From positions 71,796,001 to 71,860,000 of the forward strand of contig OX597821.1 of the NCBI GenBank assembly GCA_951406725.2: a stretch of 64,000 bases of DNA, given 5' to 3'. Under the pieces are notes generated by a model. The model saw only the letters and a program-made list of their open reading frames with translations, made no database searches and was not told where the DNA came from. This DNA comes from Octopus vulgaris. Taxonomy: Eukaryota. Shown in pieces: positions 49,203-50,260 of this stretch (within the stretch, counting starts at the first letter, position 1; each line of letters starts with the position of its first letter). Position numbers and translations under genes: made by a program.

Positions 49203-50260
49203 TAAATAATGAGGGAGATAAATTGAATATTAATTTAATTAATATCAATTTAAAACCATTAGCCTAGCATACAAAAATCTGAAAAATCAGAGAAAATTCC
49301 AATACATGTGTATATTTTAAGAGCTAAAAACCACGATGTGGACAGCCATATGCTAGAAATAGATCACCCACGATCAAACTACAAAGAAAGAATGTTCTCT
49401 AGAGAAAATTCAGCGGACACCAGAACAATAGGCGGGCAAGGCAGTTGAAAATTATATAAAAAATCAAGAATTAATCGCAGGAGTGGCTGTGTGGTAAGTA
49501 GCTTGCTAACCAACCACATGGTTCCGGGTTCAGTCCCACTGCGTGGCATCTTGGGCAAGTGTCTTCTGCTATAGCCCCGGGCCGACCAATGCCTTGTGGG
49601 TGGATTTGGTAGACGGAAACTGAAGGAAGCCTGTCGTATATATGTATATATATATATATGTGTGTTTGTGTATCTGTGTTTGTCCCCCTAGCATTGCTTG
49701 ACAACCGATGCTGGTGTGCTTACGTCCCCGTCACTTAGCGGTTCGGCAAAAGAGACCGATAGAATAAGTACTGGGCTTACAAAGAATAAGTCCCGGGGTC
49801 GATTTGCTCGACTAAAGGCGGTACTCCAGCATGGCCGCAGTCAAATGGCTGAAACAAGTAAAAGAGAGAGTAAAGAGTATACCGGTTTCGACTATTAACG
49901 AATAAATCACTTACGTAATCCTTCGTCCGTAGGACTCATCAGTACGATCGTTCCAAAAGCAATATAATTTGTAAAACTAACCACCGGTTTTCTGTATAAA
50001 ACAGATACGTACTTAGTTCTAACTATTACATTGGGGTTAATTTCAAATGTCTGAGTTCTGGCGCGCTAAATTCCGGAAACAAAAACTGCAGCAAATAATT
50101 TACTGCAGTTAATGCTGCATATTAGAGAACATATTTATTTTAACATTTAAATAATGAGGGAGATAAATTGAATATTAATTTAATTAATATCAATTTAAAA
50201 CCAATAGCCTAGCATACAAAAATCTGAAAAATCAGAGAAAATTCCAATACATGTGTATAT
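49203..50260 (-). mobile_element. hammerhead-containing partial tandem repeat (Penelope pLTR/retrozyme-like)
   Basis: 113-bp direct repeats at 49203-49315 and 50148-50260 (1 mismatch); internal hammerhead motif; SINE B insertion. Confidence 0.75.
49477..49876 (+). mobile_element. SINE family B, full length, young-looking
   Basis: Head GCAGGAGTGGCTGTGTGGTAAG, B-box-like GGTTCAGTCCC, internal TA/TG tract, tail GCATGGCCGCAGTCAAATGGCTGAAACAAGTAAAAG. Confidence 0.95.

Follow-up and report, generated by a model that had tools for sequence, protein, structure and literature searches.

A SINE-split hammerhead motif in a 1.2-unit, retrozyme-like repeat of Octopus vulgaris

Hammerhead retrozymes and Penelope pLTRs have already been described from many kinds of animals, and it is common for SINEs to be nested in other repeats. 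For both reasons the locus described here is, as a whole, an ordinary fossil. Its one standout feature is an unusually long helix II.

The locus lies in a stretch of 64,000 nucleotides of Octopus vulgaris DNA, called the window from here on. Two nearly identical direct repeats (R) enclose a hammerhead motif on the minus strand, and inside this motif sits a dispersed repeat of about 400 bp, which we take to be a SINE. This raises the question of what the enclosed unit once was, and in which order its parts came together.

With moderate confidence, we read it as a solo copy of 1.2 units, resembling a non-LTR retrozyme, that Penelope-like enzymes likely made from RNA in circular or tandem form, and that the SINE split later. 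The copy is predicted to be inactive, and its long helix II would be native to the family. A first-pass annotation of this DNA had already proposed a partial tandem of retrozyme or pLTR type with a later SINE. The fold of the circularised monomer, the helices across the SINE and a candidate target-site duplication support that proposal, which needs amending, among other points, in the account of helix II.

The unit and its hammerhead core

The two copies of R agree at 112 of 113 bases, so the single mismatch reported in the annotation is confirmed. Once the SINE is removed, the unit computes from R to R as a monomer of 545 nt, again as reported, and the whole is a 1.21-mer with one hammerhead motif at the locus (Table 1). 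The monomer has a GC content of 32.5% and is non-coding. Its six frames, which were read by eye, are broken by stops, the longest open stretch being some 60 codons, and no RT or GIY-YIG reading frame or remnant was recognised in the six frames of the unit. Near the unit there is no inverted copy, and elsewhere in the 64-kb window there is no homologue of it.

Table 1 Features of the unit in window coordinates; on the minus strand, 5' to 3' runs from high to low positions.
Feature	Position	Strand	Remark
Target-site duplication (candidate, 9 bp) of the entire unit, left copy	49195-49203	unstranded	At the end of microsatellite 49017-49202
R, downstream copy on the hammerhead strand	49203-49315	minus	112/113 identical to 50148-50260
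Unique segment U2, lying 3' of the predicted cut	49316-49472	minus	Predicted to pair with U1 (through 49392-49426) and R (through 49348-49357)
Helix I 3' strand, distal part	49473-49476	minus	Separated from the ribozyme by the SINE
SINE-like dispersed repeat, ~400 bp, with internal microsatellite	49477-49876	plus	Repeat comparison within the window
Helix I 3' strand, proximal 3 nt; also fits the SINE tail	49877-49879	minus	
Second core box GAAA (GAAAC, 49889-49885), palindromic helix III (ACCGGU, 49886-49881), GUA triplet (49882-49880)	49880-49889	minus	
35-nt piece between CGAA repeats (49925-49922, 49890-49887)	49890-49924	minus	Predicted GUAA-capped hairpin
Short canonical helix II GUCC-UAC-GGAC, then GAA, then G	49925-49935	minus	
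Helix I 5' strand (49949-49943) and first core box CUGAUGA (49942-49936)	49936-49949	minus	
Unique segment U1: local hairpins and three arms toward U2 (50055-50063, 50064-50074, 50123-50132)	49950-50147	minus	Predicted
R, upstream copy on the hammerhead strand	50148-50260	minus	Matches 49203-49315
Target-site duplication (candidate, 9 bp) of the entire unit, right copy	50260-50268	unstranded	

Other repeats surround the unit. Right beside it, at 50277-50590, lies a MITE-like inverted repeat with 97-nt arms that are 93% complementary and spaced 120 nt apart. Nested inverted repeats at 48095-48535 (arms of 58-66 nt, 89-97% complementary) form a long palindromic MITE-like element. A second SINE-like family is found as head-to-tail copies with a 184-nt period at 51226-51822, and as an inverted copy at 48773-49005, left of the microsatellite.

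The two core boxes are separated by 46 nt, and cleavage is predicted between 49880 and 49879. If the long helix II is accepted, the CUGANGA and GAAA boxes, the NUH triplet and the G10.1-C11.1 pair are all present. Helix III is the palindrome ACCGGU, with a predicted duplex energy of -8.3 kcal/mol. As long as the SINE is present, helix I is left with 3 Watson-Crick pairs at a predicted probability of 0. Without it there are 6 Watson-Crick pairs and one G-U, followed by a small internal loop and some further pairs. The complete minus-strand core, the palindrome and the 6-bp stem I that the annotation obtained by deleting the SINE all hold up.

Among 126 pairs of breakpoints tried, the 6 pairs plus G-U occur on one diagonal only, which is that of the annotation. 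If the left flank is chosen at random, at least 6 pairs form at 1972 of 63851 positions, and 6 plus G-U at 867 of 63851; an equally stable arm duplex arises in 294 of 4993 cases. The joined helix I favours an original joining of the two flanks, with a chance of about 1-6% that was worked out post hoc, which is support and not proof.

The core descriptor, consisting of CUGANGAG, up to 60 nt, and then CGAAAC NN GUH, matches once in the window and not at all in 300 simulated windows. Rfam gives no match at gathering score in the window and no ribozyme at E-values up to 10 in 49150-50350, and ARAGORN finds 0 tRNAs. A covariance model made from 30 metagenome motifs (described below) puts 49910-49950 at the top of positions 1-50200, at 17.4 bits and a rough E of 0.007. 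This rank is not counted, because the search pattern behind the model was derived from the unit's own motif, which makes it circular. The unit is of value as a lead, since descriptor and Rfam searches miss it and it hints at a retrozyme-like family of octopus that is rather large and has yet to be described.

The window also holds partial hammerhead-like words at 2083 and 22512 on the plus strand and at 2761 on the minus strand, where CUGANGA is joined by a short stem or a later GAAAC. These may be decayed motifs of Penelope type; the model built from metagenome motifs gives them no score.

Pairing across the SINE and the order of events

Closed into a circle, the hammerhead strand of the monomer is predicted to fold at -135.8 kcal/mol with 67% of its bases paired; its z is -4.8, and none of 60 shuffles is as stable. 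The opposite strand reaches z -3.1. One of 61 microsatellite-free control segment-strands, drawn from the window up to 56.7 kb and given 5 shuffles each, folds as low.

This sole control is the segment at 55591. It lies inside a broken LINE-type retroelement on the minus strand (54738-57729), of which the frame 55254-56051 matches RVT_1 at E 1e-18.

The predicted circle is a branched rod. Three helices of 9-11 bp link U1 to U2 across the SINE, at mean pair probabilities of 0.87-0.99, and a 10-bp helix joins U2 to R (5 of 500 in the R-U2 pairing test). A first test of U1 against U2, on plain duplex energy, was null, with 219 of 1000 shuffles and 154 of 1000 random stretches doing as well. A strand test comparing G-U with A-C was null too (21 to 15, p 0.20). 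The gain of pairing over separate folding is -22.7, which none of 300 shuffles and 1 of 300 random stretches equals. As many as three strong U1-U2 helices are found in 18 of 400 shuffles. The tests with a positive outcome were chosen after the plain duplex energy had come out null. On balance, the modelled pairing makes the SINE's flanks look like parts of one structured RNA.

The ends of the unit share a 9-bp word, the longest among 64 boundary pairs. It occurs once in the adjoining 187-nt microsatellite and 36 times in the window. As a candidate duplication it is weak evidence, because it lies in TA-rich, microsatellite-like sequence.

It could be asked if all of this is a chance assembly, in which a local duplication of 113 bp came to surround unrelated pieces, and a decayed hammerhead fragment is foreign to the left flank. 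The junction test by itself stands at 1-6%, post hoc, one pairing test is null, and a single copy has been seen. Against this, the core descriptor is absent from all the simulated windows, there are helices across the SINE, and the candidate duplication is present at both ends. We regard a chance assembly as very improbable indeed.

The SINE has relatives in the window. Two near-full-length ones, at about 22.7-23.2 kb and 34.9-35.3 kb, are 85-91% identical, and there are more decayed ones. Its own ends are ambiguous, by 1-2 nt at the head and 3 nt at the tail: 49476-49477 also suit the head of the SINE, and 49877-49879 also suit its tail. Because of this, the insertion point is given as 0-3 nt from the predicted cut. 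The annotation had placed it 3 nt from the cleavage site, which is more exact than the ends allow. It had also seen no obvious target-site duplication. That stands for the SINE, for which there is none of at least 4 nt, but likely not for the unit, given the 9-bp candidate.

With the SINE present, the complete hammerhead fold is predicted to cost 12-14 kcal/mol. This copy of the unit is likely dead, because the SINE sits inside the predicted hammerhead motif. The earlier description of the unit as "inactivated" agrees with the predicted loss of helix I, and to that extent rests on a folding prediction. The description "young" agrees with only 1 mismatch in 113 bases, a count with a wide 95% interval, 0.02-4.8%.

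The SINE carries 16 private differences in 330 columns, the repeats R carry 1 in 113 (Fisher p 0.002). Taken at face value, these counts would make the SINE older than the unit insertion. It would then have entered the source copy first, and a SINE-bearing RNA of 945 nt would have been retrotransposed, either uncleaved or by way of a discontinuous hammerhead, the SINE being looped out of helix I. The distal part of helix I is in fact predicted to pair across the SINE at a probability of about 0.47. However, the proximal pairs have a probability of 0, and the cost of the complete fold applies here as well. Moreover, the private differences run AT-to-GC at 9:4, against 9:22 in two other SINE copies (p 0.02), which points to differences of subfamily and not of age, with these two copies as the only comparison. 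We therefore retain the order in which the SINE came later, and consider a SINE-first order distinctly improbable. The difference counts nonetheless sit badly with the later SINE, unless many of them are subfamily differences.

Two further ideas on the SINE were dropped. A signature of A-to-I editing (6 A-to-G among the 16) involves few changes and is confounded by subfamily. Priming of the SINE by a ribozyme cleavage product, suggested by a tail that abuts the cut, is explained equally well by priming at a 3-nt microhomology.

A short helix II within a long one

The annotation gave stem II a region of 46 nt. This is the distance between the core boxes, but a short helix II nested in it was overlooked. 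The 46 nt open with a perfect GUCC-UAC-GGAC helix and a GAA, after which comes a G where the core needs an A. A 4-bp helix with GAA at this place is seen in only 257 of 100000 shuffles. With the 35-nt piece omitted, the motif shows the layout that is canonical for metazoans, with 6 bp in helix I, 4 bp in helix II, 2 bp in helix III and a palindromic loop. PMC4209133 gives 6, 4 and 1-2 bp and a palindromic loop for the canonical type I motif. The closing pair of helix II has a predicted probability of 0.998 without the piece, and of 0.25 in the SINE-free local fold with the long helix.

The short design is also found elsewhere. The pattern CUGANGA GUCC-loop-GGAC GAAAC CG GUH matches 135 times across 119 metagenome loci; in 114 of these matches helix I has at least 4 bp, which the pattern does not demand. 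A loop II of 3 nt, as in the octopus unit, is rare among these natural matches (2 of 135). More than one motif is present in 12 of the 119 loci, mostly 150-600 nt apart; as the loci are short, the true number may be higher. Among 124 loci compared with the unit, none proved homologous to it. The 119 metagenome loci have just the motif in common with it, their best blastn matches being 15-26 nt long.

Some of these metagenome contigs (including L006, L009, L015-L017, L027 and L034) carry a large family of type I hammerheads with a 9-nt loop II, in part in tandem units of 150-306 nt, and one (L033) has four hammerhead motifs in a 792-nt repeat. They are likely retrozyme-like repeats of eukaryotes in the samples.

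Because the nested short helix with its GAA matches a design seen in 119 loci, it is likely that a canonical hammerhead gained the 35-nt piece. The SINE may then not be the only lesion of the hammerhead. The element and the route could be just as described here, with a short helix II in the family and the piece as a second lesion private to this copy or its parent, which would have crippled the ribozyme ahead of the SINE or independently of it. The rarity of the short helix in shuffles, the metagenome loci, the CGAA on both sides of the piece and the firm closing of helix II in its absence all speak for this. But the 3-nt loop II that it requires is the rare one, and the piece is structured in a strand-specific way and pairs with its flank, which is rarely expected of foreign DNA. 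We consider a private lesion, the main rival to our reading, possible, if on the doubtful side.

A native long helix II is favoured, because strand-specific structure of this kind speaks against a foreign piece. The predicted fold of the piece is a GUAA-capped (GNRA) hairpin that contains three G-U pairs and turns back to pair with the short helix II, at pair probabilities of 0.90 and 0.96 in the circle. The fold is specific to the hammerhead strand (-11.8, versus -5.4 on the other), and is matched by 71 of 2000 shuffles of the insert and by 8 of 200 in a separate test. The piece thereby supplies a long, imperfect helix II, with a full GAAA beside a G-C pair and then a U-U mismatch.

In the circle, the hammerhead with the long helix and the fold with the short one come out at -129.5 and -129.8 kcal/mol, about 6 kcal/mol above the minimum. 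As the two are nearly isoenergetic and only one completes the core, it can be imagined that in 545-nt retrozyme circles of a cephalopod type, a long helix II atop an ancestral short one works as an on/off switch for cleavage, and represents an evolutionary intermediate. We offer this modelled switch as a tentative and rather unlikely idea. Should a long helix II with a nested short one prove family-wide and active, the hammerhead would exist in a variant that was not met in print in the searches made here. In the literature these covered, to which most subscription journals do not belong, no paper was found on a retrozyme from octopus, a variant with a long stem II or a hammerhead split by a SINE.

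Route of insertion and kinship

As described in PMC3846280, Penelope insertions in rotifers come with duplications of 8-10 bp and with partial tandems. According to PMC8557442, some Penelope clades prefer microsatellite targets. A 1.2-mer with a candidate duplication of 9 bp fits a Penelope-type route, and it is by this analogy that we infer the route.

On the preferred reading, events would have run as follows. Tandem transcripts of source copies would self-cleave after GUA, likely as dimers formed through the palindrome, and the cleaved RNA would be ligated into a highly paired circle of 545 nt. A Penelope-like RT would copy slightly more than one round of this circle, and a Penelope-like endonuclease would insert this copy where a TA-rich microsatellite ends, creating a duplication of 9 bp. 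By then the ancestral short helix II would have been lengthened by the 35-nt piece, likely through fold-back copying, so that the long form was already in the family's RNA. The SINE would have arrived later, in opposite orientation and likely primed where 3 nt of microhomology match its tail, so that 3 bp of helix I stayed beside the core. The unit is one dated insertion that retains its two ends and a candidate target duplication, and as such makes the model of more-than-unit copying testable on the ends of sister copies.

The unit shares much with animal non-LTR retrozymes (PMC7229834; 10.64898/2026.07.22.740005), whose solo monomer derivatives are included in this comparison. Both have a type I hammerhead with a 6-bp helix I (in the unit once the SINE is removed) and a short palindromic helix III. 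Both are non-coding, with a GC content below 45-50% and a monomer predicted to be highly self-paired, and both leave more-than-unit copies in the genome and duplications of more than 4 bp, the unit's being a candidate. There are also differences. An active retrozyme is defined by at least two hammerheads in tandem, whereas the unit has one in a 1.2-mer, with no dimer or array. Its 545 nt exceed the 150-450 nt of invertebrate retrozymes in PMC7229834, while falling within the 51-972 nt of 10.64898/2026.07.22.740005. Where a retrozyme has a helix II of 4 bp, the unit has a region of 46 nt with a short helix nested in it, and it is split by a SINE. The unit is filed as retrozyme-like and not as a member, because the tandem of two hammerheads is absent at the locus examined. 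To judge from these likenesses, it would work like an animal non-LTR retrozyme.

The single hammerhead, the size of 545 nt, the null pairing tests, the weak closing pair of helix II, the place of the hammerhead fold 6 kcal/mol above the circle's minimum, the microsatellite-like setting of the duplication and the one copy examined count against the preferred reading.

The likeness to Penelope pLTRs suggests another origin. According to PMC4209133, PMC3846280 and PMC8557442, these too have partial tandems, a palindromic helix III suited to dimers and a longer helix II, and Penelope-like insertions have duplications and TA-rich targets comparable to the 9-bp candidate and the microsatellite here. 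The unit could be what truncation left of the 3' end of an autonomous Penelope-like element, arranged as a partial tandem of the usual kind, with R as a shorter truncated copy and no circular RNA phase of its own. Partial tandems, microsatellite targets and duplications of 8-10 bp are Penelope traits in PMC8557442 and PMC3846280, a longer helix II is reported for pLTR hammerheads in PMC4209133, and pLTRs are held to be the origin of animal retrozymes (10.64898/2026.07.22.740005). But the six frames, as read by eye, hold no recognisable remnant of a reading frame, there is no inverted copy nearby, and the predicted pairing covers the entire monomer. Minimal pLTR hammerheads have an unpaired base between 9 and 10.1 and a helix I of 4-5 bp; the unit lacks that base, and its helix I has 6-7 bp. 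A truncated Penelope end is thus unlikely, and the unit is not an autonomous Penelope element.

A likeness in detail is the axolotl hammerhead HHR_Amex2 (PMC7229834). Like the unit, it has a helix III of 2 bp, and it tolerates a U-U mismatch where helix II starts, as is also seen in the unit. Amex2 has an ordinary weak helix II and forms tandem repeats of 350 nt, whereas the unit has a long helix II and is solitary.

Hammerheads and Penelope-like elements are also reported from cephalopods. The giant squid has 235 Rfam hits of type I hammerheads, according to PMC6962438. In the repeat annotation of Octopus vulgaris (PMC13282606), Penelope-like elements make up 6.8% and SINEs are abundant, and ribozymes go unmentioned in the text and the one supplement searched.

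In sequencing runs, words of 49880-50260 are found at shares of 0.27-0.59 in 16 of 24 listed runs, from seven studies under four coded organism labels; these shares may include the source sample, and a repeat family and an orthologous locus look the same by them. Of the remaining listed runs, 4 have small shares and 4 are empty, which speaks neither for nor against the words being present. None of the 24 listed runs is an RNA run with words of the unit. Patterns specific to the family have 0 matches in viral, metagenome and prokaryote genome collections, as is expected for animal DNA. A looser pattern picked up 5 viral loci, with hammerhead-like motifs of the GUCC/GGAC kind that are unrelated to the unit.
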